Of a stretch of 64,000 nt of DNA, positions 16,802 through 60,844 are shown in pieces; position 1 is the first letter of the stretch, and each line of letters starts with the position of its first letter. The stretch lies in IMG/VR virus record IMGVR_UViG_3300009034_000863, one strand, 5' to 3'. Under the pieces are notes generated by a model. That model made no database searches, was not told the origin of the DNA, and worked only from the letters and a program-made list of their open reading frames with translations. The DNA comes from an uncultured virus (IMG/VR IMGVR_UViG_3300009034_000863). Taxonomy: Duplodnaviria > Heunggongvirae > Uroviricota > Caudoviricetes. Position numbers and translations under genes: made by a program.

Positions 16802-17023
16802 GTGTCAGAATGTCCTTTTAAGCTTGGAGACAGAGTTCGAGTAGTTAGAACAGTTGAAAGAGCCAAGCCAGGAGACAAGGGTATAGTTACAAAAATAGAG
16901 ACTGTTGATGACACTCTTCTGGTAAGAGTTAATTTAAAAGTACCAAAGAAACAAAAACCAGTAAGAGCTTATTTCAGAACTAATCAACTCAAGTTAATTG
17001 ATAGATGGAAGCAGAAAATATGA
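16802..17023 (+). CDS. SH3/KOW-like protein with WxQ tag
   Basis: FKLGDRVRV; DRWKQKI. Confidence 0.75.
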   Translation: MSECPFKLGDRVRVVRTVERAKPGDKGIVTKIETVDDTLLVRVNLKVPKKQKPVRAYFRTNQLKLIDRWKQKI

Positions 17024-18036
17024 AAATATTGAAAAATATAAAGGTGCCAACTGGGAATATACTGATAGTCAAAGGAGACAATGGACTGATTGAGATGTTG
17101 TCTCTTGGAGACTATGGGAAACAAGTAAACCTGAAATGTGATGCTCTTGGATTAACAAGAGATATTGAGAGAGTACTACATACTCAGATGTTACCTCTTG
17201 AAACCAAGTGGGTAATAACTGTTTCTACTCAATATGGATGCTCTATGGGATGTTTGTTCTGTGATTGCTGGATGGTTGGTCCAGGAGTCAATTGTACTTT
17301 TAATGATTTGATTAAACAGATTCTAACTGGTATCAAGCTCCATCCAGAAGTTACATTCACAAAGAGATTGAATATTCATTTTGCTAGGATGGGAGAAGGT
17401 ACATGGAATCCTCATATTCTAGATGCTGCTAAATGGTTAAAGGAACACATTGACTCAGAGTATAAGATTCACCCAGTAGTATCAACAATGATGCCAAGGA
17501 AGAATGAATGGCTGAAGACTTTTATTCATACTTGGATGAGAATCAAGAATAGATTGCTTAGAGGAGAGGCAGGTCTTCAGCTAAGTATTAATTCTACTAA
17601 TGAAAAAGAAAGAGCCAAGATGTTCAATGGAAATGCTCTGACACTCTTTGAGATACATAAATTGATGCAAGGGATAGTACCTAATGGCAGAAAGATAACT
17701 CTTAACTTTGCAGTGGCTGACTGGGAAATAGACCCTCATGTACTTCGTCAATACTTTGATCCTGATGATTATATAGTGAAGCTAACACCTATGCATAAGA
17801 CAAGAGTTGCAGAAGAAAATAATATTAGAACTAAAGGTGATTACACTACAATTGCTCCATACAAAAAGATAGAAGAATCTCTTAAAGCAGTAGGATTTGA
17901 TGTTCTAGTCTTCATAGCTTCTAAAGAAGAAGACTTAGGTAGAATCACTTGTGGAAATGTAATCCTTTCGGGGACTGTACCAGAAGTACCATATGAGGTA
18001 ATACATGATGAGCTACATGTTTCAAAGACTCACTAG
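17020..18036 (+). CDS. radical SAM enzyme, RlmN/Cfr-like
   Basis: VSTQYGCSMGCLFC (CxxxCxxC), RMGE, LQLSINS, C-terminal TCG. Confidence 0.8.
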   Translation: MKILKNIKVPTGNILIVKGDNGLIEMLSLGDYGKQVNLKCDALGLTRDIERVLHTQMLPLETKWVITVSTQYGCSMGCLFCDCWMVGPGVNCTFNDLIKQILTGIKLHPEVTFTKRLNIHFARMGEGTWNPHILDAAKWLKEHIDSEYKIHPVVSTMMPRKNEWLKTFIHTWMRIKNRLLRGEAGLQLSINSTNEKERAKMFNGNALTLFEIHKLMQGIVPNGRKITLNFAVADWEIDPHVLRQYFDPDDYIVKLTPMHKTRVAEENNIRTKGDYTTIAPYKKIEESLKAVGFDVLVFIASKEEDLGRITCGNVILSGTVPEVPYEVIHDELHVSKTH

Positions 18037-19492: not shown

Positions 19493-19685
19493 AGGAGACA
19501 AGATTGTTACAAATCGGTATCTTGGCAGACATCTTCCAAGAGGAACAAAAGGGTTCGTTAGTGCTCCTGGTACTGAATCAAGTTATGTCTTTTTGTACGG
19601 CAAGAACTGGTACAGACCCACAATGTGGGTTAGTAATGAACATTTAGATTTAAGGGAATATGAACAATGGAGTCAAGTAAGATGA
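19479..19685 (+). CDS. SH3/KOW-like protein with WxQ tag
   Basis: FSKGDKIV...GTKGFV; YEQWSQ. Confidence 0.75.
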   Translation: MKFSKGDKIVTNRYLGRHLPRGTKGFVSAPGTESSYVFLYGKNWYRPTMWVSNEHLDLREYEQWSQVR

Positions 19686-20452
19686 ACTTTAAATTTCGAG
19701 ACTATGAGTTCTATCTTGACACTAAGAACATAAAGTTAGGAACACTTTTCATAGCAGTTTCTGGATCTCATCCTTACGGATGGGGTACTCCTAGAGCTGA
19801 CTTGGATATTAGGAAAGTATGGATTCCAGATATCAATCAAGCTCTTAGTATTGAGTACAGAGGAAATGTAAAGGAAACCAAGATGCCATTGGATGATGGT
19901 AGAGTGATTGATCTAGTAGATATTCCTCTGTATAGATTTCTAGGCACACTCTCAAGAAAAGGAAATGGAAACTATCTAGAGAATCTCTTTCAGGAAAAAC
20001 TCTGGTGTATGGATAAAGAAGTTAAAGAGGTTCAGGAGATAGTAATGAAGAATCTTCATACTGGATTTCTAGATCATTACTTAGGATACTATTACAAGTC
20101 TCTGAAACCTGATATGTTGAATCCTTCTAGATTAGTCAAATATGGACTGCAGAAATTGATACTTATGTCTTATAGAGTCCTAAGATCTGGTCTAATTCTT
20201 GGGGAGAAACGAGTAGTTGTCTATAATCTCTTAGAACAAGACAAATATATTGAAAGTAATATCTGTCTTCAAGTTCGTCAGGAATATCTAAATGGAAAAC
20301 CAACTCGCCCTAAACTCTTGTTAAAGGCTAAGAAAGAGCTTGATGAGCTTCATTTACTCTTGAAAGAAACAAAAAAGAATTGTGGATGGTATGAAGTCTT
20401 TCCAGATCATCTGTTTGATAGATGGCTCAAGAAATATTATATAGGTGAATAA
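19682..20452 (+). CDS. Pol-beta superfamily nucleotidyltransferase (YcgL/RlaP-like)
   Basis: VSGSHPYGWGTPRADLDIR, GNGNYLE. Confidence 0.8.
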   Translation: MNFKFRDYEFYLDTKNIKLGTLFIAVSGSHPYGWGTPRADLDIRKVWIPDINQALSIEYRGNVKETKMPLDDGRVIDLVDIPLYRFLGTLSRKGNGNYLENLFQEKLWCMDKEVKEVQEIVMKNLHTGFLDHYLGYYYKSLKPDMLNPSRLVKYGLQKLILMSYRVLRSGLILGEKRVVVYNLLEQDKYIESNICLQVRQEYLNGKPTRPKLLLKAKKELDELHLLLKETKKNCGWYEVFPDHLFDRWLKKYYIGE

Positions 20453-21804: not shown

Positions 21805-22107
21805 ATGAGTCTGAAACTAGTGGCTAAAACAATTCTAATAACAATGTGTGGAGCAGTATCAGTAGCTCTATTGTGGGCATTTTATGTCCTACTTGTTATA
21901 CAAGCTGCTATAAGCATAGAACTTATTGACAAAATTGCTAGTGAAGGTACGCTTCATCCTTATTCAAGTGTTTTTACTTTTGTTGTAATGGTAATTGGCT
22001 TGGTATATATCCTGTTCGCTTTTGTAGTCTGGACAGCCAATATCCTTATTTTAGTGAGAACAATTATTCATGGTCAGGAGAAATCAAGATGTCATCAGAG
22101 AAGATAA
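21805..22107 (+). CDS. membrane protein
   Basis: Two long hydrophobic segments. Confidence 0.6.
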   Translation: MSLKLVAKTILITMCGAVSVALLWAFYVLLVIQAAISIELIDKIASEGTLHPYSSVFTFVVMVIGLVYILFAFVVWTANILILVRTIIHGQEKSRCHQRR

Positions 22108-22775
22108 AAGAAAAAGACTTTGTACTGATCAATTACACTGGGAAAGTGAAAGAGACAGATGAAATCATAGACAGCAACATCCCAGAAGTAATTGAAGAGA
22201 ACAAGCTAGGATCTATTCCTGGTCCAAGGCTTCTTATCGTTGGTGAAAACTGGATGATAGAAGCTATAGATCAATTTCTGGTCGGTAAAGAACCAGGAGA
22301 ATTCTCTGCTGAAATTCCTCCAGAAAGAGGATTTGGTATGAGAGATCCAAATAAAGTGTCTGTAGTACCTCAAAGGAGAATGACTAAACAAGGTATGACT
22401 CCAATGATAGGAGCTAGTCTCTCTTTAGATGGAAGAATGGGTAAGATCAGGTCAATAGAATCTGGAAGAGTTACTATTGATTTCAACCATCCTCTAGCAG
22501 GAAAGACAATAATTTATGACATTGATATATTGAAAATAATCACAGAATTGGAAGAAAGAATTCTAGCTTTAATGACAAGAAGGATTACTGATGTAGAAGA
22601 AGATCTCTATAAACTAGAATTTGATGAAGAGAACAATCTGACTATTCACTTTCCTGAGGAAGCATTTTATCTTCAAGGTGTACAGTTGAATAAGAGAGGA
22701 ATAGCTTCTGATATTAGAAGATTTATTCCTGAAATCAAGAAGATAATTTATACTGAAGATTTCTCAGAGATGTAA
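22089..22775 (+). CDS. FKBP-type peptidyl-prolyl isomerase (archaeal long-type, SlyD-like)
   Basis: FVLINYTGK, IPPERGFG, VTIDFNHPLAGKTI, plus C-terminal extension. Confidence 0.9.
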   Translation: MSSEKIKEKDFVLINYTGKVKETDEIIDSNIPEVIEENKLGSIPGPRLLIVGENWMIEAIDQFLVGKEPGEFSAEIPPERGFGMRDPNKVSVVPQRRMTKQGMTPMIGASLSLDGRMGKIRSIESGRVTIDFNHPLAGKTIIYDIDILKIITELEERILALMTRRITDVEEDLYKLEFDEENNLTIHFPEEAFYLQGVQLNKRGIASDIRRFIPEIKKIIYTEDFSEM

Positions 22776-26576: not shown

Positions 26577-26798
26577 TTGCCTAGCGGTATATCCGTTAAG
26601 ATCGCAAGGATGGGGCAGCAGTTCAAGGAATATGCCCTTCCCCGAGGTGCCACTGTTGCAGATGCTCTAGAGGCAGCCAATATCAAATTGGCATCTGGAG
26701 ACACTGTGGCGGTGAACGGCGGAGAAGTTAACACATCCAAACGACTTGCAGGCGGAGACAGGGTCTTTGTGGTCCCTGCAGCTGAAGGAGGCATATAG
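26577..26798 (+). CDS. ubiquitin-like (ThiS/MoaD/SAMP-type) modifier precursor ending GG-I
   Basis: ATVADAL...VAVNG...LAGGDRVFVVPAAEGGI. Confidence 0.85.
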   Translation: MPSGISVKIARMGQQFKEYALPRGATVADALEAANIKLASGDTVAVNGGEVNTSKRLAGGDRVFVVPAAEGGI

Positions 26799-26886
26799 CC
26801 TTCCAGCTGATCGACTGATAACGCCCCCCATTTCCCTATTTTTTTAACCTAGAAAGAAAGGAAAAAAAAACTATGGAGGTACAAGT

Positions 26887-28050
26887 TTGGGAAGAAAATG
26901 TCAAGTGAAACGAGGGAAGATTGAGAGCAGTGGTATCAATGATGCTTTGTTGAGAGAGGTAACAGAGGTATTCTCTAGAATACAGGGAGTAAAAGAAGTT
27001 ACTTTTACTCAGACACACTCGAAACCAACACCACTAGTGAAAGACTTGAAGGAAGGCTTAGTCGTCAACCTTTGGTCCGTTCCAAGTACTGTCAAAGACC
27101 CAGGATCTCTACATGAGTCCTTATACGAGAAAGGAATCTCTATTGTCAAGGGGAGAAAGATCGGTCTTACTCCTTGGCAAGGCGATGTCTATGACTTCAA
27201 GAAGAAAGTGCCAAAAGGATTTACAGTGATTAAGGACTTGAATAAGAGAGGACTGGCTCTATACAAGGACAACAACATTTGGATACTATTTGACATAGCT
27301 GATTCTAGAGACCACAAGTTAGCAGAGATTGAGGACGTACTGACATACATTATCAACCAAGCTGGATTTGAAATTAGACCTTGGGACCTTGAAGACGAAA
27401 AAGAACATCTCCAGAAGTTGTACGGTCAATTCCTGAAGCGTCAGGTAGACCAGTTAAAACAGAAGGCAGACAAAACCAAGAGGGACTTTGAAGCGGCAGA
27501 AAGGACATATCTTCAGAGATTGAGTAATATGATTTCTGAAGATAGGATGGTGGGAGCAACGCTGGACAAATTGGCAGACATGAAAGGTTCCACTGAGGAC
27601 ATGTGGAACAAGATAGTTGAAGTTAAGGAGATCAAGAAGATAAACTTGGTTAATCTTGACCAACTAGAATGTCTAACACATGATATAATGATGGGTCCTT
27701 TCAACATAGGCTCTTTCAAGATAACATTGGCAAACACTGGTCTAAGGATTCGATCGAACATTGTAAAATCTGGACACCAACACCCACATGTTTCTGGGGA
27801 AGGAGTTCCCTGTCTAGGAAACGCTGGAGATCTAATGAAACATTTCTATTCTGGAGAATGGGATGTAACATTGCTGACTTTGATAAAGTTCCTAAAGTCG
27901 TACAATGGTGCAAGTCCACACACAAGGATAGACGAGTTCCTCAAGAAAATCTCTAAAGAAGAAGCTCAGAAATACAAAGATCTTCTTGTAGAAAAGAAGA
28001 AAACTGGCATAAGGAGAATCCTCAGTACAGGACAGGTGAAGTTCAGTTGA
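26887..28050 (+). CDS. prokaryotic E2-like conjugating enzyme with N-terminal domain and coiled coil
   Basis: HPHVSGEGVPCLGN matches the E2 HPN/HPH...C signature; lies between Ubl and JAB. Confidence 0.7.
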   Translation: MGRKCQVKRGKIESSGINDALLREVTEVFSRIQGVKEVTFTQTHSKPTPLVKDLKEGLVVNLWSVPSTVKDPGSLHESLYEKGISIVKGRKIGLTPWQGDVYDFKKKVPKGFTVIKDLNKRGLALYKDNNIWILFDIADSRDHKLAEIEDVLTYIINQAGFEIRPWDLEDEKEHLQKLYGQFLKRQVDQLKQKADKTKRDFEAAERTYLQRLSNMISEDRMVGATLDKLADMKGSTEDMWNKIVEVKEIKKINLVNLDQLECLTHDIMMGPFNIGSFKITLANTGLRIRSNIVKSGHQHPHVSGEGVPCLGNAGDLMKHFYSGEWDVTLLTLIKFLKSYNGASPHTRIDEFLKKISKEEAQKYKDLLVEKKKTGIRRILSTGQVKFS

Positions 28051-29012
28051 CAAATGAATTTGCAGTGAAAGTACCTAAGATTATAATAGAGCTACAGACA
28101 TATCTGAAGATGAAGTGGTTTAAGAATCACTTTAACCAAGAGATCTTTGCTGTCTTAGTAGTCGAAGAACAAGATGATACGCTATTTGTCTCTAACATGC
28201 TGTTTCCTGAACAAAGTGTTTCAGGAGGACATTGTAAACCTACAGCAGCTGGACTGGCTAAGATTCTAGAAGAGATGGAAGAGCCTGAATTAGCTAGAGG
28301 CTGGTTCCACACTCATGGATCTATGGGTCTATTCTTTTCAGGAACCGATACTACAACGATAGCCAAGTGGGGAGAAGGTGCTCCATACCTTCTCTCTATT
28401 GTTGGTGCTCAAAGTGGAATCAAAGCTAGACTGGATATATTCTCTCCATTTCCAATGACGTTCGATGATGTGGAGCTAGAAGTGGAGATTACTGGCAACT
28501 CAGTGGACGATGAATGCAAGACTATAATAGAGAAGAAAGTACAAAAGACTCTTGCTACCAGAGTAAAAGGTGTTGGGCGAAGAAGAAGGACTGGACCTAT
28601 TGTTGAATCTATTGACACCACTACTGGAAAAAGGAGTGGCTTTAAGGATTGTCCTCATGATAATCCACAAGAAGACTGCAACCTCAAGAACTATACCCAA
28701 TGTTGCTTTGTAAACAAGAAATGTCCTTTCATGTCGGACAAGGCTCAGCAATTGAGTGGGACAGACAATCTCAACCAGAAAGAATTTCTTGAACTCAAGG
28801 AAACCTTTGCAGAGTGTCCCTATCCAGATCCTGATGTTTGCATGGCTAAGGACTATGCACAATGTGAGTTCTATAATCCTCAATGTCCACACTACAACCA
28901 AGTGCAAATTCCAAATGCTAGTATTAGAGCAAGACTACATGTTTTTGGTTCAGTCTTTATGTTTGCTCATGGAGAATGGACCAAGAAACTAGAAGGAGTA
29001 TATAACACATGA
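28047..29012 (+). CDS. JAB/MPN+ (JAMM) metallopeptidase with C-terminal Cys-rich repeats
   Basis: E...GWFHTHGSMGLFFSGTD (HxH...S..D). Confidence 0.85.
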   Translation: MTNEFAVKVPKIIIELQTYLKMKWFKNHFNQEIFAVLVVEEQDDTLFVSNMLFPEQSVSGGHCKPTAAGLAKILEEMEEPELARGWFHTHGSMGLFFSGTDTTTIAKWGEGAPYLLSIVGAQSGIKARLDIFSPFPMTFDDVELEVEITGNSVDDECKTIIEKKVQKTLATRVKGVGRRRRTGPIVESIDTTTGKRSGFKDCPHDNPQEDCNLKNYTQCCFVNKKCPFMSDKAQQLSGTDNLNQKEFLELKETFAECPYPDPDVCMAKDYAQCEFYNPQCPHYNQVQIPNASIRARLHVFGSVFMFAHGEWTKKLEGVYNT

Positions 29013-29431
29013 TAGACAACCAATTCAAGCGACTACCAGAGTTCATCATTGAACCCACCACTGACCCCTCCTTTTATTCCCTTATTTGTCCAAGATGTAG
29101 AAATAAACGAGTTAGAAAGATCCATGTTCTACTTCCTGACATTTTGACTTGTGGGAAGTGTGAAGGTCAAGGTTATTATCCTGGAGCTTTCAATCCTACT
29201 TTTCCACTGAATAGCAAGGTGAAATTGAAGATAGATTTTAATCTTGGTCGTAGAATGGTTAAGAAAGGTACTAAGGTTAAGGTAGTTGAAAGTGGGTATT
29301 TCAAACCCAAGAAACCTAATAAGAAAGAAGAAGTTTGTTTCGTTCAAGACAATAAAGGTGAAGGATGGACAATGTATGCTAGAGATCTAGTACTTGTCAA
29401 TCCTAATGAAAGATGGAAGCAGATATTATGA
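29009..29431 (+). CDS. Zn-ribbon plus SH3-like protein with WxQ tag
   Basis: CPRC...CGKC, FPLNSKV; ERWKQIL. Confidence 0.7.
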   Translation: MIDNQFKRLPEFIIEPTTDPSFYSLICPRCRNKRVRKIHVLLPDILTCGKCEGQGYYPGAFNPTFPLNSKVKLKIDFNLGRRMVKKGTKVKVVESGYFKPKKPNKKEEVCFVQDNKGEGWTMYARDLVLVNPNERWKQIL

Positions 29432-29862
29432 CAAGAACACTTTCTGAGATATTAGAGGGATATCAAGTAGCAAGAATACTTTTTACAGTTTGTGAAAACT
29501 GTGAGACAGTAAGTACTATTTCTAAAACAGATCGTCCTATATGTACCAAGTGTAATAAGGAGTTACAGAAAAAGAATGTTTTTACTCCTGCTCAATATGA
29601 GAGATTGATGAAAAGATTGGAAGAGGAATTTCCAATTGGTACTCAAGTTATTCCCACTGAAAAGTTATTGAAGATAAGTAAGAACTTGAGTAATCTTCAA
29701 GGAGAAGTATTCAAGCATGAATGGGAGGATATTTGTTTTCCTCTCCATACTGGATGGAAAAAGGATGGTCTAGTTATAGAGGTATATAATGTTAATCTCT
29801 TTGAAGTGGTCAAGATCAGTTCTACTGATAAATGGCGACATGGAAAGAAGTTTGAGATATGA
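29428..29862 (+). CDS. Zn-ribbon plus SH3-like protein with WxH tag
   Basis: CENC...CTKC, FPIGTQV; DKWRH. Confidence 0.7.
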   Translation: MTRTLSEILEGYQVARILFTVCENCETVSTISKTDRPICTKCNKELQKKNVFTPAQYERLMKRLEEEFPIGTQVIPTEKLLKISKNLSNLQGEVFKHEWEDICFPLHTGWKKDGLVIEVYNVNLFEVVKISSTDKWRHGKKFEI

Positions 29863-29877
29863 ACAAAACAGGGTGCA

Positions 29878-30273
29878 GTGGATAAGATGAAGTTTAATTT
29901 TAGCAGACTTACAAACCCTATTTCAGTATGTAGAGAATGTGGAATACTCTGGTCAATGGATAGAAAGGGTGAAAGATGTGATAATTGTAACAGAGAACTA
30001 GAGATAATTCCTCCTAAGAAATGGGAAAGGATCGTTAGTGAATGTGCCAAGACTTTTCCAGTAGGGAGCAGAGCAAAGGTTATTGGGAAAAATTCTCCTC
30101 TTGGTAGACATTATAAAGATAGTATTGCAGTAATAACTGGGTACAACCAGCATGAGATATACTTCCCTATTCAAGTACAGATGAGTGATAATAAAGGGAA
30201 TATTTTTGAGGATATGGCAACACCATTTGATCTGGTCCCAATAGATTCAAAGGAGAAGTGGATGCAAATATGA
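29878..30273 (+). CDS. Zn-ribbon plus SH3-like protein with WxQ tag
   Basis: CREC...CDNC, FPVGSRA; EKWMQI. Confidence 0.7.
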   Translation: MDKMKFNFSRLTNPISVCRECGILWSMDRKGERCDNCNRELEIIPPKKWERIVSECAKTFPVGSRAKVIGKNSPLGRHYKDSIAVITGYNQHEIYFPIQVQMSDNKGNIFEDMATPFDLVPIDSKEKWMQI

Positions 30274-30659
30274 AATTTGATTTCAGAGAAATGAGAGACA
30301 GAAATATTACTTTTTGCCGAAAATGTGGTCTCTTATGGCTTGATGGAGAAGAGAATGATAAATGTTATTATTGTAACAAGAGAAAACGAGGAAAGTACTC
30401 TAAGGAAGAATGGGAAGAGTACATGCAAGAATTTATTAAAGTTCATAAGTTAGGAAAAAGAGTCAAGGGTATTAAAACAAGGTCATCTACTTCATTTGCT
30501 CATGCTGAAGAAACTGGAGTTATCACTAGTTACAGAAACGATCATTTTTTTCCTATATCAATAACTTGGACTACTAAAGATAATAGAGAGGTAACTGATT
30601 ATGTTACTATTTTTGACTTCAAGCTTCTTGACGAGAATGAGAAGTGGATGCAGGCTTGA
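30270..30659 (+). CDS. Zn-ribbon plus SH3-like protein with WxQ tag
   Basis: CRKC...CYYC, LGKRV; EKWMQA. Confidence 0.7.
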   Translation: MKFDFREMRDRNITFCRKCGLLWLDGEENDKCYYCNKRKRGKYSKEEWEEYMQEFIKVHKLGKRVKGIKTRSSTSFAHAEETGVITSYRNDHFFPISITWTTKDNREVTDYVTIFDFKLLDENEKWMQA

Positions 30660-30871
30660 TATTATTTGGTAAACCTAAAGATCGGTTTAATAGGAAACCC
30701 TATTGCAGATTTCAAGAAAGATGTCATTATCAAACATTTGGTTGTAGAAATGATAGATCACTTGATAAGATACCTCGATGTATGTTTAGAAGTACCTGCA
30801 ACCAACAATATTATACTTTCTCTTATCAGTTTGATAAAAGATTGACTGTACAAACTTAAGGTGTTTCAGAA

Positions 30872-31243
30872 TTGGTGATTCTAGAAAGATATGAACTCTT
30901 GAGATACCCAGAAGGAACTATCTTTTCTCCAGAAGATTTAGAGAAGATCATTGGAAGATGGAAGTGGAGAAGAGGTACTCTGAAAGTGAGGATAATGGAT
31001 TATTTTGACATTGTTAGGAAACAGAACAAGGTAGTTTATCTAGGAACAGCTTCACATTCAGGGAAAAATACATATAACAATGCATTTCTTCTTGTTCTTC
31101 TGGAAAAAGGTATTCGTAAAGAAGATTCACCAGTGAAATTAATTTCAAGAACTGCTGTGGAATCAGGAATGGAAGATCAAGTTAAAAGAGAATATTTTCT
31201 TTTCTTGGTTCCTACAACATTAAGTTTTAAAGGAGGAAAATAG
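30872..31243 (+). CDS. hypothetical protein
   Basis: 123 aa ORF abutting the ThiF gene. Confidence 0.6.
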   Translation: MVILERYELLRYPEGTIFSPEDLEKIIGRWKWRRGTLKVRIMDYFDIVRKQNKVVYLGTASHSGKNTYNNAFLLVLLEKGIRKEDSPVKLISRTAVESGMEDQVKREYFLFLVPTTLSFKGGK

Positions 31244-31921
31244 ATGTCAGAATATTATTTCAGACAGTTAGACCTGTTTGATCCAAGAAAGAAGAATCCA
31301 TCTATAACTATAATCGGGGCAGGTTCGATAGGAAGCACCGTTGCTTTGGCTCTAGCTAAGATGGGTATGAAACATATTGAGCTAGTAGACTTCGATGTAG
31401 TCACTAGACACAATATTGCCAACCAAATAGTTAAGAGAACTCATCTTGAGAAGTTCAAGGTTGACTGTGTAAAAGAAGTGTGTGAAGAGTTTAGTCCAGA
31501 GGAAGTAGACATAACTGTTCAAAAGAATAGATTTGAAGATCCTGAAACAAGTTCAGAAATAGTAATCACTGCTACAGACAACATAGAGGCTAGAATTCAA
31601 GTGGTGAAGATAGCACAGGAAAGTCCTTTAACTAGATTCTTTATTGATGCTAGAATGGCTGGAGAGTTACTGCATATCTTTGGTTTCAATCCTCATTCTG
31701 ATAAGACTAAAGAGTATCTAGAATTCTTCTCTGCTAAACCAGCAGAGAATCTACCATGTACAGCAAGAACTATTGTCTATAATGTTTTCATGTGTGCTTC
31801 TTATGTGGCAAACTTAGTTAAGAAATACTGTTCTAACGAGCCAGTTCCATTTCATATTATCTATGATATGAACCAAATGGTGCAGATAGTTTCTTGGGAT
31901 GGAATTGATAAAGATGACTGA
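31244..31921 (+). CDS. ThiF/MoeB/E1-like adenylyltransferase
   Basis: RQLDLF, IIGAGSIGS, VDFDVVTRHNIANQ, ATDNIEAR, IDARM, LPC. Confidence 0.9.
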   Translation: MSEYYFRQLDLFDPRKKNPSITIIGAGSIGSTVALALAKMGMKHIELVDFDVVTRHNIANQIVKRTHLEKFKVDCVKEVCEEFSPEEVDITVQKNRFEDPETSSEIVITATDNIEARIQVVKIAQESPLTRFFIDARMAGELLHIFGFNPHSDKTKEYLEFFSAKPAENLPCTARTIVYNVFMCASYVANLVKKYCSNEPVPFHIIYDMNQMVQIVSWDGIDKDD

Positions 31922-33468: not shown

Positions 33469-33910
33469 GTTCATAGGGATAAGAAACAATGAGGAAACTC
33501 ATTATGCTCGATATACTTCTGAGGAACTCAAAAAAGCAGTAGAGCTATGGAAATTAAGTAGAGAAGAGATTCCAGTAACTCTAAATTTTGATATGAGAAA
33601 AAGAATTGGAAAAGTTTTAGATGTTGATTGGTCTGAAGACAAGGGATTAATACTTACAGTTTCAGTTGATTCTGGTGCTTTCCTGAAATATGAAGGAACT
33701 GGTTGTGCGATGAAGTATCATCAAACTCCAGATGGAAGAGCAACTAGAATAGAACTAGATATGTTTACATTCACTAATGTACCATATCCTGGCTACAGAA
33801 TAGATGAAACATTACTAGCAGAAAAGAAAGAAGATAAATGGATACAAGCATGGGAGATACAGTTCAGAGAGAAAGTCAAGAAGTGTAATGTACATGTCAA
33901 TGATGGATAA
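33458..33910 (+). CDS. hypothetical protein, weak resemblance to phage prohead protease; WxQ tag
   Basis: RYTSEELKKAV...IPVTLNFD...RIGKV...GL; DKWIQ. Confidence 0.45.
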   Translation: MLYKFIGIRNNEETHYARYTSEELKKAVELWKLSREEIPVTLNFDMRKRIGKVLDVDWSEDKGLILTVSVDSGAFLKYEGTGCAMKYHQTPDGRATRIELDMFTFTNVPYPGYRIDETLLAEKKEDKWIQAWEIQFREKVKKCNVHVNDG

Positions 33911-35108
33911 ACCAACTGTAGAGAGGCTGAGAGTTCTAAGGGAAACTATGAAAGGAGACAACTTCAAAAACCTCAGAGGAAACATCTTCAAGTACTTGTT
34001 TGGAGAAGTCAGTGACTTCAGTCACCAGTTTGGACCACACAAGTGGAGAGGATATGTCTATCATTCTAGGAACAGTTTGTATGGGTCAATATTCTCTTAT
34101 TGGGATAACATTCCTCTAGTTATTAGAGGTTATCCTAAAGTAAAATACTCTGAAGCTGCTAAATTGATTGGAAAGAAATGTGCTTGTGAAGAGAAACCTG
34201 ATGGTACAAATCTAGGACTCTTTTTGTTACCAAATGGAACATTTATGGGGAAGACTAGAGAAGTAGAACGATTTGACAGACAGGGTTATCAAGGAAGACA
34301 TTGGCTGAATTTATTAAAAGCTACTGGAACTATTCCTAAGATCACTAAGTTAGCTAAAGACAGTTATCTTACTTTTGGAGAATTGTACGGACATGAGAAC
34401 CCAGGAGAATTTATCAGGTACACTGTTCCAATAGAATTCAGAGGATTTGATATTGTAGACTTGAATGACTTGACTTTCTTATCTCCAAAGAAGAAAATGA
34501 ATCTGTTTCATGCAGTAGACCTTCCTACTGTTGAAACATACTGGGAAGGTATCTTAACTCCTAAAGAAGTAGATAGACTTGAATATGAACTCAGAGAACT
34601 TGTTAAGGAAGATGGGATAGAAGGTCTAGTAGCCAAATGGTTCGATCCAGAAGTACAGGATACAGTTCCAGGAAAGATCAAGACTCAATCAATTAGAGAA
34701 TTATGCTGGGCTATGTCTCCTAGAAAAACTATTCCTAGAGGATTTATAGCTAAAGGAATAAGAAAGGCTTGGGAAAAGTATGGTTCTTTTGACAATCAGG
34801 AACAGATAGTCGAATTCGTAGTTGCTGAAATAGGAGAAGAATTCGGAGAAGATAAAATAAAAGCATCTATGTCTAAAATTAAGAGAATAGTTCAAGAAAG
34901 GTTCATGGGAGAAAAGGAGAATATTCTAGGGGAAGTCTTTGCTTACTTAATGAAATTAGAGAAGCAAGGAATTCCAGTGACAATAGACAACAAACATAAA
35001 ATAATGAATATGATAGCTTCTGAATTCAAAGGGTATGATTCCAAGAAGCTATACCATTCTTTTATGGCATACACTAGAAAAGGAGGTGAAATAATTGGTT
35101 CAAGATAG
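33888..35108 (+). CDS. ATP-dependent RNA ligase (Rnl2/Rnl3-like)
   Basis: Motif I EKPDGTN, FGELYG, FRGFDI, EGLVAK, RGYPK. Confidence 0.8.
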   Translation: MYMSMMDKPTVERLRVLRETMKGDNFKNLRGNIFKYLFGEVSDFSHQFGPHKWRGYVYHSRNSLYGSIFSYWDNIPLVIRGYPKVKYSEAAKLIGKKCACEEKPDGTNLGLFLLPNGTFMGKTREVERFDRQGYQGRHWLNLLKATGTIPKITKLAKDSYLTFGELYGHENPGEFIRYTVPIEFRGFDIVDLNDLTFLSPKKKMNLFHAVDLPTVETYWEGILTPKEVDRLEYELRELVKEDGIEGLVAKWFDPEVQDTVPGKIKTQSIRELCWAMSPRKTIPRGFIAKGIRKAWEKYGSFDNQEQIVEFVVAEIGEEFGEDKIKASMSKIKRIVQERFMGEKENILGEVFAYLMKLEKQGIPVTIDNKHKIMNMIASEFKGYDSKKLYHSFMAYTRKGGEIIGSR

Positions 35109-39362: not shown

Positions 39363-39935
39363 ATGCGAAATTGGTTTACATCTGATACACACTTTGGTCA
39401 TTCCAATATAATCAAATATTGTAATAGACCATTCAGAAATGTTGATAGGATGAATGAGGTATTAATCAATAACTGGAACCAAAGAGTGTCTAAGAATGAT
39501 GTAGTAATATTCTTGGGAGACTTTATCTTTAAAGAAAAACATAAAGCTCCATACTTTATTGAACAGTTAAATGGGAATATTACTTTCATCAAGGGAAACC
39601 ATGATAACAACAATTCTCTTAATTCAAGAATATTACATCTAGTTATGAATTTAGGAGATAAGATGTTATTTTGTACTCATTTTCCTAAGAACTTCAATAA
39701 CAAGTTTGAAATAAACTTGGTAGGACATGTCCATGAGAAATGGAAAATAAGAAAAATATACAACTCTTATCTAGTGAATGTTGGAGTTGATGTCTGGAAA
39801 TATAATCCAGTTGATATTCAAGAGATACTGAAGGCTATTCATGATTATGAAGAGAACAGAGAATTAAAAAAGGAAGCAGAAAAATTGGCTAGAAAAAAGT
39901 TGAAAAATATAAAAGGGGGTAAACTGATTGTTTAG
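39363..39935 (+). CDS. calcineurin-like metallophosphoesterase
   Basis: SDTHFGH, LGDF, GNHD, GHVH, NVGVD. Confidence 0.9.
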   Translation: MRNWFTSDTHFGHSNIIKYCNRPFRNVDRMNEVLINNWNQRVSKNDVVIFLGDFIFKEKHKAPYFIEQLNGNITFIKGNHDNNNSLNSRILHLVMNLGDKMLFCTHFPKNFNNKFEINLVGHVHEKWKIRKIYNSYLVNVGVDVWKYNPVDIQEILKAIHDYEENRELKKEAEKLARKKLKNIKGGKLIV

Positions 39936-40611: not shown

Positions 40612-41560
40612 GTGTTCTATAATATTAAAATCAAAGATTCTAGAAGTATGGAAGAGATCAAAGATGATTCAGTCCATCTGGTGATAACCAGTCCAATGAG
40701 AGACAATAAGGGATTGGAGCATAGATGACTTCTTTTTCTGGTGTTTGACACATCTATGCTTGTGTGACTCTTCCCTGAGTTGTTTCTTGGAATACTATGG
40801 GGCACCAGCATGGGCTGGATTTATTGATAAATATAATCTTAGAAGAGAGGATAAGAAAGAAGAGTTCAAGATCTTTCATGAATATCTACATCCTGTCTGG
40901 GAAGAATCCTTTAGAATTCTGATCCCAGGTGGAAAGCTAGTAATCAATATTATGGATGTAGATGGCAAGGCTAATCTCTATGGTAGATGGATGAATAGTA
41001 CAGAGGTCATTACAAGATGTCAGGATATAGGATTCTTAGTCCGAGAAGATGTTATCTGGATGAAGTATCTTCAACACAAGAGTCCTTGTGGTTCTTATCC
41101 TAAACCTTTTGGTGTAGTATGGACTAATCTCTATGAACACAATATTGTGTTTCAGAAGAAAGGAAGAAGAGATTATTCTGATATGCCTGAATCTGTTAAG
41201 AGAGAGAGTCTGCTTTCTAAGAGAGAATGGGAATGGTTGAGAGAGAACTTCTGGAAGTTTCAGTCTGCTTCTGCTAAGAGAGAGAAGCATGTAGCTCCAT
41301 TTCCTATTGAACTTCCTAAGAGATTTATCAAGTTACTTACTTACAAAGGAGATATTGTCTTAGATCCCTTCCTAGGTTCTGGCACAACGATGAGAGTTGC
41401 TAGAGAGTTGAGAAGGAATTGTATAGGGTACGAGATTGATGAGTCTTATATTGACATCATACTTGACAAAATAGGTAGCAGACAGAAGTTATTTGGGATT
41501 ACTGAAAAAGATCAGTTTATGTTACAAACAAAAGGAGGAACTAAGAAATGGAAGATGTAA
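40612..41560 (+). CDS. N4/N6 DNA methyltransferase (beta class), split by an intron: exons 40612-40698 and 40793-41560
   Basis: Exon 1 DSRSMEEIKDDSVHLVITSPM joins exon 2 YYG...HVAPFP...VLDPFLGSGTT. Confidence 0.85.
40699..40792 (+). other. 94-nt archaeal BHB intron in mRNA
   Basis: CCAA/TTGG 4-bp helix with 3-nt bulges TGA and AAT, flanking helices; canonical cuts restore the reading frame. Confidence 0.8.
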
Positions 41561-41772: not shown

Positions 41773-41986
41773 AGACCATGATCATATTGAAATGTAAAAA
41801 GAAAGATTGTGAAGGGCATCTTGTTGGTTGGAAGTTTGATGATACACCAGTATTATTGCCAAATAAAACTCATAAGGCAGAAGGTAAAGTTGAAGTAACT
41901 CCAGAGATAAGGAAACAACTGAAACTTAATCACAGTTCAGAACCATTTAATACTTTTATGAAAGTAGTACAGGAGGAATCTGAAAA

Positions 41987-42238
41987 ATGATTATTGAATT
42001 CTTGGGAATTACAATAATACTTGACGTTAAGATAAAAGGAAAGATATTAACTAATTGGAAGTATAGACCTTGGCTCCACAAATGGTGGTGGTGGAATAAA
42101 GTTCAAGTATATTTCTATAAGACTATGGCATATTTGACTATGATTCCTTTCATAATTGTTTGTTGGCTTGGAAATAAAGACTGGAGAGAAGAGAAGAAAA
42201 AAATAATGGAGGAAATGTGGGAAAATGATAGTGTGTAA
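41987..42238 (+). CDS. small membrane protein
   Basis: Trp-rich hydrophobic segment. Confidence 0.55.
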   Translation: MIIEFLGITIILDVKIKGKILTNWKYRPWLHKWWWWNKVQVYFYKTMAYLTMIPFIIVCWLGNKDWREEKKKIMEEMWENDSV

Positions 42239-44292: not shown

Positions 44293-44739
44293 ATGGACCA
44301 GATACTGGATAGACTGTATATAGGAGACATAGGTGATGCACTTGATTGTGAACTCAAAAAAAGAATAGGGATAACTGCACACCTCAGTCTATGTCCTGAA
44401 TTTAATATTGAACCATGTGGCGAGATAAAATGTATGGTGTGTAGTATTAAAGATGGAAAACCTCTTGAACATGTTCCAATCAACCTATGTGTAGATTTCA
44501 TAAAGAAATTTATCAGGTGGGGAAAAGTACTTGTCACTTGTGGTGCTGGATGTTCTAGGTCTCCAAGTATAGTCTTATGTTATTTATATGAGACTGGATG
44601 GGACTTTGATGAAGCATTGGCTTATATTAAAAAGAAAAGACCGATGATTTTTCCTAGTCCAGTAATTCTAGATTCTCTTAAAGATTATTATAATCTAAAA
44701 GAGTATAAATTAAAAGTCTTAGAGGAGGTGCTGAAATGA
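44293..44739 (+). CDS. dual-specificity protein phosphatase
   Basis: QILDRLYIGD, VLVTCGAGCSRSPS (CX5R). Confidence 0.9.
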   Translation: MDQILDRLYIGDIGDALDCELKKRIGITAHLSLCPEFNIEPCGEIKCMVCSIKDGKPLEHVPINLCVDFIKKFIRWGKVLVTCGAGCSRSPSIVLCYLYETGWDFDEALAYIKKKRPMIFPSPVILDSLKDYYNLKEYKLKVLEEVLK

Positions 44740-49809: not shown

Positions 49810-49883
49810 GGGGTCATAGTTCCAATGGTAGAACAGCTCCGTTGCAGGGAGAAGGATTGTGGGTTCAAGTCCCACTGACTCCA
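49810..49883 (+). tRNA. tRNA-Ala(TGC)
   Basis: Cloverleaf GGGGTCA/TGACTCC with G3:U70, anticodon TGC, T-arm GTGGG-TTCAAGT-CCCAC. Confidence 0.8.
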
Positions 49884-49886
49884 CTA

Positions 49887-49963
49887 GGGGAAGTAGTGTT
49901 AAATGGTTAAAACCTCTGGTTTGGATCCAGAAATTCTAGGTTCGAGTCCTGGCTTCCTCACCA
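49887..49963 (+). tRNA. tRNA-Pro(TGG), encoded CCA
   Basis: GGGGAAG/CTTCCTC, TCTGG-TTTGGAT-CCAGA, CTAGG-TTCGAGT-CCTGG, ACCA. Confidence 0.85.
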
Positions 49964-60019: not shown

Positions 60020-60844
60020 TTGCAATATATATTGATTGAAGGAGACTGTAAGAAAGTACTCCCTACTTTAGAAACTAAGAGCATAGATCAAATCATTACA
60101 TCTCCCCCTTATTTTAAACAAAGAGAATATGGGAAGTTAGAAGGAGAAGTCGGTACTAAAGGAAGTCAAGAACAGTACCGTGAGGACTTAACGGTTATTT
60201 TAAAGGACTTATATTCAATATTGAAAGATACTGGAATAATGTGTTTTAATATAGATAATCCAATTAGGAGAAATGGTTTTCTAGATTTATCATGTTGGGA
60301 CTTTGTACCATTAATAAGGAATATTGGATTCCGCTTAATTGGTACAATAATCTGGTATGATAGAACTAAGATTCCTATTACCAGCAAGAAACTATTAAAA
60401 CACAATTATGAACCAGTATTCCTTTTTGCTAAAACAAGAGAATATACATTCAATAAAGATGAAATAAGAGTACCATATTCTAGAGAAAAATACTGGGGAA
60501 GAAGAGATTGGACCCCTCATCCCAAGGGAGCAGACAAAGGAGATGTATGGGATATAGTACACTTCAGAGGAAATATGTCTGTTAAGGGAGACAAATATGA
60601 TAGAATAGGAGTAGCTACATTTCCAGTGGAATTAATTGATAATTTAATGAAACTGGGAAGTAATGAAGGTGATATGATTTTAGATCCCTTTATGGGAAGT
60701 GGAACTACAATGGATGTAGCTAGAAGACTTAAGCGGTCTTGTACAGGAATTGAAATAAATGAGAAATATTGTAAGAATATTATTAAAAGATGTTTCAGAA
60801 AGGACTTGTCAGAGGAACATGATTTTAAATATACCAAGTTTTAG
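60020..60844 (+). CDS. N4/N6 DNA methyltransferase (beta class), intact
   Basis: IITSPPY, ATFP, ILDPFMGSGTT, GIEI. Confidence 0.9.
   Translation: MQYILIEGDCKKVLPTLETKSIDQIITSPPYFKQREYGKLEGEVGTKGSQEQYREDLTVILKDLYSILKDTGIMCFNIDNPIRRNGFLDLSCWDFVPLIRNIGFRLIGTIIWYDRTKIPITSKKLLKHNYEPVFLFAKTREYTFNKDEIRVPYSREKYWGRRDWTPHPKGADKGDVWDIVHFRGNMSVKGDKYDRIGVATFPVELIDNLMKLGSNEGDMILDPFMGSGTTMDVARRLKRSCTGIEINEKYCKNIIKRCFRKDLSEEHDFKYTKF

Follow-up and report, generated by a model that had tools for sequence, protein, structure and literature searches.

A likely BHB intron within a DNA methyltransferase coding sequence on a virus-like element

The methyltransferase gene that begins at position 40612 of the 64-kb stretch of DNA analysed here (the window) lies in two pieces, and the locus raises the question of whether the sequence between them is an intron removed from the message or the mark of a broken gene. 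A 38-codon frame is opened on the plus strand by GTG 40612, preceded by an SD-like GAGTGA, and stops at TGA 40726-40728; its peptide, up to S-P-M of motif IV, resembles the N-terminus of a beta-class DNA methyltransferase. The remainder of the enzyme is encoded in a different frame, which is open from 40700 and overlaps the first one by 27 nt. The ORF caller begins this downstream frame at TTG 40745 and ends it at 41560, and neither an in-frame ATG nor an SD-like motif was found within its first 45 nt, before the TTG. An earlier note on this DNA had pointed out the frame stopped at TGA 40726, the continuation in another frame and an intact paralogue at 60020 with a matching motif; the coordinates were confirmed by direct reading and from the ORF list, and TSPPYF was read in the paralogue.

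Without the 94 nt at 40699..40792 (plus strand), which contain TGA 40726-28 in frame with the upstream part, the gene consists of exon 1 (40612..40698, plus strand; 29 codons from GTG, ending with S-P-M of motif IV) and exon 2 (40793..41560, plus strand; 255 codons and a stop, the first residue being the Y of motif IV). Exon 2 alone matches PF01555 (N6_N4_Mtase) with E = 4.1e-38 over profile positions 10-219 of 221, and the start of the profile missing from it is supplied by exon 1, as seen in the alignment to the homologues P0002 and P0255. In beta-class methyltransferases the catalytic motif IV is N-terminal and the SAM-binding motif I (FxGxG) C-terminal. The same order is present here, with S-P-M-Y across the junction and motif I, DPFLGSGTT, near the C-terminus in exon 2, and the gene product is a beta-class DNA methyltransferase, probably of the N4-cytosine type. 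Both exons are free of stops and frameshifts, and in comparison with P0002 there is one gap in 255 residues. The uninterrupted PF01555 paralogue at 60020..60844 (plus strand, E = 1.3e-48) has a motif IV of the SPPY type and is 29 % identical to exon 2.

The borders of the insert were set independently by homologues that lack it, drawn from 1595 relatives of exon 2. The closest relative, P0002 (271 aa, 76 % identical), runs through the site without a break and has the sequence ...LVITSPMYYGAPAW... In a tblastn comparison with the window its residues 1-17 corresponded to 40648-40698 and residues 18-271 to 40793-41557; the query was contiguous and the unaligned DNA was exactly 40699-40792. A shift of either border by one base would alter the junction residue. 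P0003 (50 % identical), P0255 (54 %) and P0262 (36 %) are likewise continuous at the site, with SPPY in motif IV. The insert is thus missing in all four nearest relatives examined, and the junction 40698/40793, at which the frame is restored, is identical to that in the four uninterrupted homologues. P0255 comprises 284 residues in total and has a 29-residue N-terminus before YYG, of the same length and pattern as exon 1, which speaks for a start at GTG 40612. Five distant representatives (P0266, P0285, P0323, P0361 and P0384, among 150 listed) begin approximately 30 residues after motif IV. Among the best 120 of the 1595 homologues the only intron-bearing copy is the window's own, and none of the other 119 is without motif IV.

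The motif IV restored by the junction is SPMY, which departs from the canonical (D/S/N)-P-P-(Y/F/W). Of the best 120 of the 1595 homologues 118 have SPPY, and SPMY occurs elsewhere only in P0002. Since the intron-less P0002 also has SPMY, this variant predates the intron or is independent of it. The predicted SPMY enzyme may or may not be active.

The RNA of the region can be folded into a BHB whose 5' strand lies at 40690..40706 and whose 3' strand lies at 40780..40796 (both on the plus strand). The outer helix is formed by AGT 40690-92 and ACT 40794-96, three contiguous base pairs that can be extended by a further 2 bp (CC 40688-89 with GG 40799-800) across a 2-nt bulge. The central helix of 4 bp, CCAA 40693-96 with TTGG 40787-90, is entirely Watson-Crick and lies between two 3-nt bulges on opposite strands, TGA 40697-99 and AAT 40791-93. 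The inner helix pairs GAGACAA 40700-06 with TTGTTTC 40780-86, including one G-T pair, and an eighth pair, T-G, is possible (7-8 bp). Further inside the intron there is a perfect 10-bp hairpin (40718..40760, plus strand), in which 40718-27 pairs with 40751-60. The minimum length of a flanking helix in the hBHBh' form is about 2 bp; here helices flank the BHB on both sides, in the strict hBHBh' form. The strand order of helix, central helix, bulge and helix is that of archaeal pre-tRNA, in which the anticodon stem directly adjoins the 3' bulge, as reasoned from the standard 37/38 intron.

The canonical BHB is described in PMC6379350 as two 3-nt bulges with a 4-bp helix between them, and the account of BHB cleavage given in PMC2738675 places it between bulge residues 2 and 3. 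The cuts would accordingly fall after 40698 and after 40792, and excision by this second-bulge-base rule drops 40699-40792 and leaves an 855-nt frame of 284 codons. The earlier note had named these helices and bulges, had applied the EndA cleavage rule, a cut behind the second bulge base on each strand, to remove 94 nt and obtain a 284-aa protein, and had proposed alignment to intron-less homologues as a test. All of the elements were found where it had placed them, by direct reading with the pairing verified, its cutting rule is the one given in PMC2738675, the computed splice product was the same, and the boundaries agreed to the base with P0002, P0003, P0255 and P0262.

The fold by itself carries little weight. 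In the window 1264 loose BHB-like site pairs were counted in comparison to 1084-1144 in three shuffles, and a stricter class gave 171 in comparison to 138-146; BHB-like folds are common by chance in an AT-rich window of this kind and the motif alone is not beyond chance. The BHB fold has an energy of −31.9 kcal/mol, 1.8 kcal/mol worse than the minimum-energy fold (−33.7 kcal/mol), in which the first bulge is paired, and the folding of the region is only modestly better than that of shuffled sequences (z = −2.2, with 5 of 200 shuffles equal or better). The register is a different matter. Site pairs at least as good as the 40698/40793 BHB amount to 9 of 49.2 million in the window, and the chance of such a BHB at one fixed site pair is approximately 2e-7. 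The register is beyond chance because homology fixes the junction independently and this junction coincides to the base with the BHB cut sites; it would be very unlikely for a canonical BHB to arise by accident in exactly the register defined by the homologues. The sequence establishes the fold and its register, the precise junction and the intactness of both exons.

Other candidate sites were also inspected. An equally good BHB-like fold is present at 41945-42004 (outer helix of 5 bp, inner helix of 7 bp, two G-U pairs). It was rejected as an intron and attributed to chance, since the SD and start of the following gene lie within it and its excision would destroy that start. Eighty-eight BHB-like sites in the window would fuse open frames; they were dropped as being at chance level without homology. 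All-versus-all tblastn of the ORFs of the window and three related viral genomes gave two split alignments, both of which were rejected as introns, being in-frame protein insertions in open frames. No second homology-supported intron was found in the window or among the three related viral genomes. A search for an Rfam family matching the intron found none; the best match, snoR1 with E = 6.7, was regarded as chance and a C/D-box or other RNA within the intron was rejected.

It is likely, on the combined weight of homology and register, that 40699-40792 is a real BHB intron in a viral methyltransferase coding sequence, removed by the EndA and RtcB of the host. Cutting and ligation of the RNA are what we infer from the DNA, together with enzyme activity and host identity. 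In the transcript the 3' end of the intron and the opening bases of exon 2 would pair with the end of exon 1, and this pairing would present to host EndA two 3-nt bulges 4 bp apart. EndA would cleave after the second base of each bulge, and host RtcB would then ligate the exons and circularise the intron, by analogy with established archaeal tRNA splicing. The joined message would give the 284-residue enzyme with motif IV, S-P-M/Y, restored, and unspliced RNA would give a 38-residue peptide only. Any type of EndA should accept the substrate because the fold has the strict canonical form as defined in PMC6379350.

The explanation that survives best beside a spliced intron, though an unlikely one, is that the split gene is a pseudogene. 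A recent insertion, for example of a hairpin-forming miniature mobile element, would have broken it, and either the likeness to a BHB would be incidental or the RNA would be cut without productive rejoining. Such an origin would agree with the presence of the insert in this copy only, with its absence from the four nearest relatives and with the ends of the intron, which form a long imperfect inverted repeat as in miniature elements; moreover, the intact methyltransferase at 60020 could make the split gene dispensable. However, no target-site duplication of 2-9 nt was found at the borders of the insert and no second copy of the 94 nt was found in the 64-kb window. The central and outer helices use exon bases, which a transposon would not bring, and the clean reading frames of the two exons also argue against decay.

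The likely intron would require a host possessing EndA, and the gene content of the element bears on the nature of that host. The window has approximately 35 % G+C, about 178 short non-overlapping ORFs on the plus strand and two tRNA genes. It encodes an FKBP26-type isomerase, a ubiquitin-like/JAB/E1-like set, RNA ligase, RNase H, ThyX, a RadA/KaiC-like ATPase, dCMP deaminase and an ERCC4 nuclease. The ubiquitin-like module (26577-31921) is composed of a small ThiS/Ub-like protein (26577-26798), a 387-aa protein with no assignment (26887-28050), a JAB-type protease (28047-29012) and a ThiF/E1-like protein (31244-31921). The adjacent tRNA-Ala(UGC) and tRNA-Pro(UGG) genes occupy window positions 49810-49963; the former has G3:U70 and no encoded CCA, and the latter has an encoded CCA and G1:C72. 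In this viral tRNA-Pro G1:C72 is the archaeal/eukaryal form and speaks for an archaeal setting. An SD-like signal is strong before approximately 177 ORFs (15-26 ORFs per position at −15 to −11, in comparison to 0-4 elsewhere), and no positioned TATA-like signal was found upstream of them, a pattern consistent with long polycistronic transcripts. A relation to Borg-like elements was rejected, since pervasive tandem repeats are absent.

A possible RNA-repair toolkit was also observed in the window (19667-20452, 33888-35108, 39363-39935 and 44293-44739), with an RlaP-type nucleotidyltransferase, an RNA ligase (PF09414), a metallophosphoesterase and a dual-specificity phosphatase as its members. 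The RNA ligase is common to the related viruses G003 and G004 (33-35 %). It had no match in the phage collection, nor did the RadA-like protein, and none was found for the ligase in the search of viral contigs. This ligase might conceivably also seal exons cut by EndA.

The distant IMG/VR relatives of the element are 121 to 156 kb in size, one of them with terminal repeats, and are tailed viruses with an HK97-type capsid, portal, large terminase and PolB. They carry archaeal-type LonB, eukaryote-type topoisomerase IB and the same RadA-like/ERCC4 neighbourhood, and have only four genes in common with the window; the methyltransferase is absent from all five related viral records. One of them, G003, a complete 120.7-kb tailed virus, has a full topoisomerase IB (N, core and C domains) and a 657-aa protein with an intein splicing domain (L171 10338-11888, L172 2546-4516). 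The element is probably a large, tailed-virus-like, archaeal one.

A nearer relation is indicated by the RadA-like protein, whose 84 % relative P0242 lies on a 23,841-bp contig; the contig of P0002 is also 23,841 bp long. Because of this identity in length the intron-less allele is inferred to sit, most likely, on a sister element. The DNA of P0002 itself was not found in the viral contigs (best match 44 %), in the genome contigs (no match) or in the metagenome contigs (best match 39 % among the best 80 of 210 loci).

An indication of the host comes from the long FKBP26-type peptidyl-prolyl isomerase (22089-22775), which has IF and C-terminal domains. Of its 14 organism-named relatives 13 are archaeal, the best being from Bathyarchaeia (approximately 46 %), and a 71 % relative is encoded on another small contig; the search of genome contigs gave one Pacearchaeota locus at 39 %, uninformative on the host. 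The gene is probably a host-derived chaperone gene. In the phage collection the best matches of the methyltransferase are Sulfolobales virus enzymes. In one such virus, YNP2 (KP282680; L088 466-1408), the methyltransferase annotation consists of two neighbouring CDS with 10 nt between them; the break lies mid-gene, away from motif IV, and is not an intron at that motif.

These relationships bear on a second alternative, slightly less probable than the pseudogene, namely that the host is a bacterium or otherwise lacks EndA, in which case the 94 nt would be another structured insertion, the gene dead and the BHB shape functionless. The element does show an unusually close bacteriophage link: its radical-SAM-like protein (17005-18036) matches phrog_24834 with E = 2.7e-112 and shares 52 % identity with a Bacteroides phage Versailles protein. 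The strong Shine-Dalgarno signals before most genes would also suit a bacterium, though they are found in both domains, and the ERCC4 nuclease clusters with proteins labelled just 'viral', with their host domain unstated. Against this stand the archaeal relatives of the FKBP26-type protein, the nearness of the methyltransferase to Sulfolobales virus enzymes within the phage collection, and the eukaryote-type topoisomerase IB and LonB of the related viruses, and in a host without EndA the exact BHB register would be left as an unexplained coincidence of the order given above. An archaeal host, which the earlier note had also favoured, is very probable though short of proven, possibly one of the Bathyarchaeia/TACK kind. 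No EndA or RtcB domain was found in the ORFs of the window, and PF01974 (EndA) was found in none of the five related viral records by a search that was positive in exactly the four archaeal control genomes. Since neither the window nor these records encode an EndA domain, the EndA would be that of the host, and the virus probably needs the host tRNA-splicing enzymes for its methyltransferase.

A chimeric join in the metagenome assembly is a far less probable source of the 94 nt. The window does come from an uncultured 136-kb contig, but a random insert would not pair with the flanking exons in exact BHB geometry and would not leave a junction that matches the homologues to the base. Least probable of all is ribosomal recoding, by a +1 frameshift between 40700 and 40726 or by a bypass of the 94 nt like that of T4 gene 60, in which the take-off codon is matched by the landing codon and lies next to a stop: the overlap of the two frames and a stable hairpin just downstream would suit it, but a frameshift product would have approximately 31 foreign residues between S-P-M and Y, an insert present in no homologue, and for a bypass no codon matching the take-off ATG precedes TAC as a landing site, and the ATG is not directly followed by a stop.

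A BHB intron removed from a message has its closest precedent in the cbf5 pre-mRNA of Crenarchaeota (Watanabe 2002; Yoshinari 2006; Yokobori 2009, PMC2738675), for which cDNA and in vitro cleavage are reported. As PMC2738675 describes them, the cbf5 introns are, like the one predicted here, short coding-sequence introns bounded by a BHB, with cuts predicted between the second and third bulge residues. They too lie inside a catalytic motif, within the catalytic Asp codon in cbf5 and between M and Y of motif IV here, and are present in some lineages and missing in close relatives. Unlike cbf5, a pseudouridine synthase gene on the chromosome, the present gene encodes a DNA methyltransferase on a virus-like element. 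Its BHB is of the strict canonical form, whereas most cbf5 introns are characterised in PMC2738675 as unconventional or relaxed and as needing a heteromeric enzyme. Furthermore, splicing of cbf5 was shown on RNA, and the intron described here is a prediction from DNA sequence.

The second archaeal case is the HVO_1309 mRNA of Haloferax volcanii, in whose 5' UTR Schwarz et al. (2020, PMC7714728) verified a BHB intron both in vivo and in vitro; cbf5 is named there as the only other mRNA case. Both HVO_1309 and, by prediction, the methyltransferase message would be substrates of the archaeal splicing endonuclease that are mRNAs rather than tRNA or rRNA. The HVO_1309 intron, as presented in PMC7714728, is however a leader intron and the reading frame there is independent of splicing. 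With the BHB introns of archaeal pre-tRNA and pre-rRNA, in the form outlined in PMC6379350, the present intron shares identical geometry, and processing by EndA and RtcB with circular release would be expected; unlike in those RNAs, the exons are protein-coding and there is no tRNA or rRNA body around the motif.

Beyond archaeal splicing two further systems are instructive. The group I introns of phage genes (T4 td, nrdB and sunY) are ribozymes of several hundred nt that require no host enzyme. As in those genes, a viral gene of nucleic-acid metabolism is broken here by an intron that the RNA must lose, but the 94-nt insert has no such fold and would rely entirely on host proteins. The other system is HAC1/XBP1 (IRE1; PMC4090602), which is likewise marked by protein-only cutting of an mRNA at paired stem-loops, joining by a tRNA ligase and a change of frame. 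The nuclease there is IRE1 and the process, as portrayed in PMC4090602, belongs to a regulated stress response of eukaryotes.

Full-text searches of the literature turned up no BHB intron reported from a viral mRNA or protein gene. The coding-sequence BHB introns found in the searchable literature are those of cbf5 only, to which the one 5'-UTR case may be added, and for protein genes a structural paper of 2025 (PMC12397907) still cites only the cbf5 work. New here would be a coding-sequence BHB intron, of the kind known from cbf5, in a viral DNA methyltransferase, and it is likely to be real and spliced.

A more far-reaching proposal, which must be regarded as doubtful, is that the intron, placed in the catalytic motif, acts as a gate and is no passive passenger, so that the methyltransferase is made only in cells with active EndA and RtcB, and that such introns shuttle between host RNAs and viral messages. 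If the gate were true, it would set the timing of self-methylation or confine self-methylation to the right host. If the introns do move, for which reverse splicing followed by reverse transcription is a conceivable route, archaeal viruses would be both carriers and a source of the BHB introns of protein genes.

If the 94 nt are indeed spliced, the archaeal tRNA-splicing machinery would mature viral messages too, and a concrete cause would be at hand for the 'truncated' archaeal virus genes that arise in gene calling. The locus would also offer a natural substrate, with a 94-nt intron, minimal exon context and an intron-less sister allele, to probe how EndA finds its motif outside tRNA, and, because of the sister element without the intron, the case bears on how such introns are gained.
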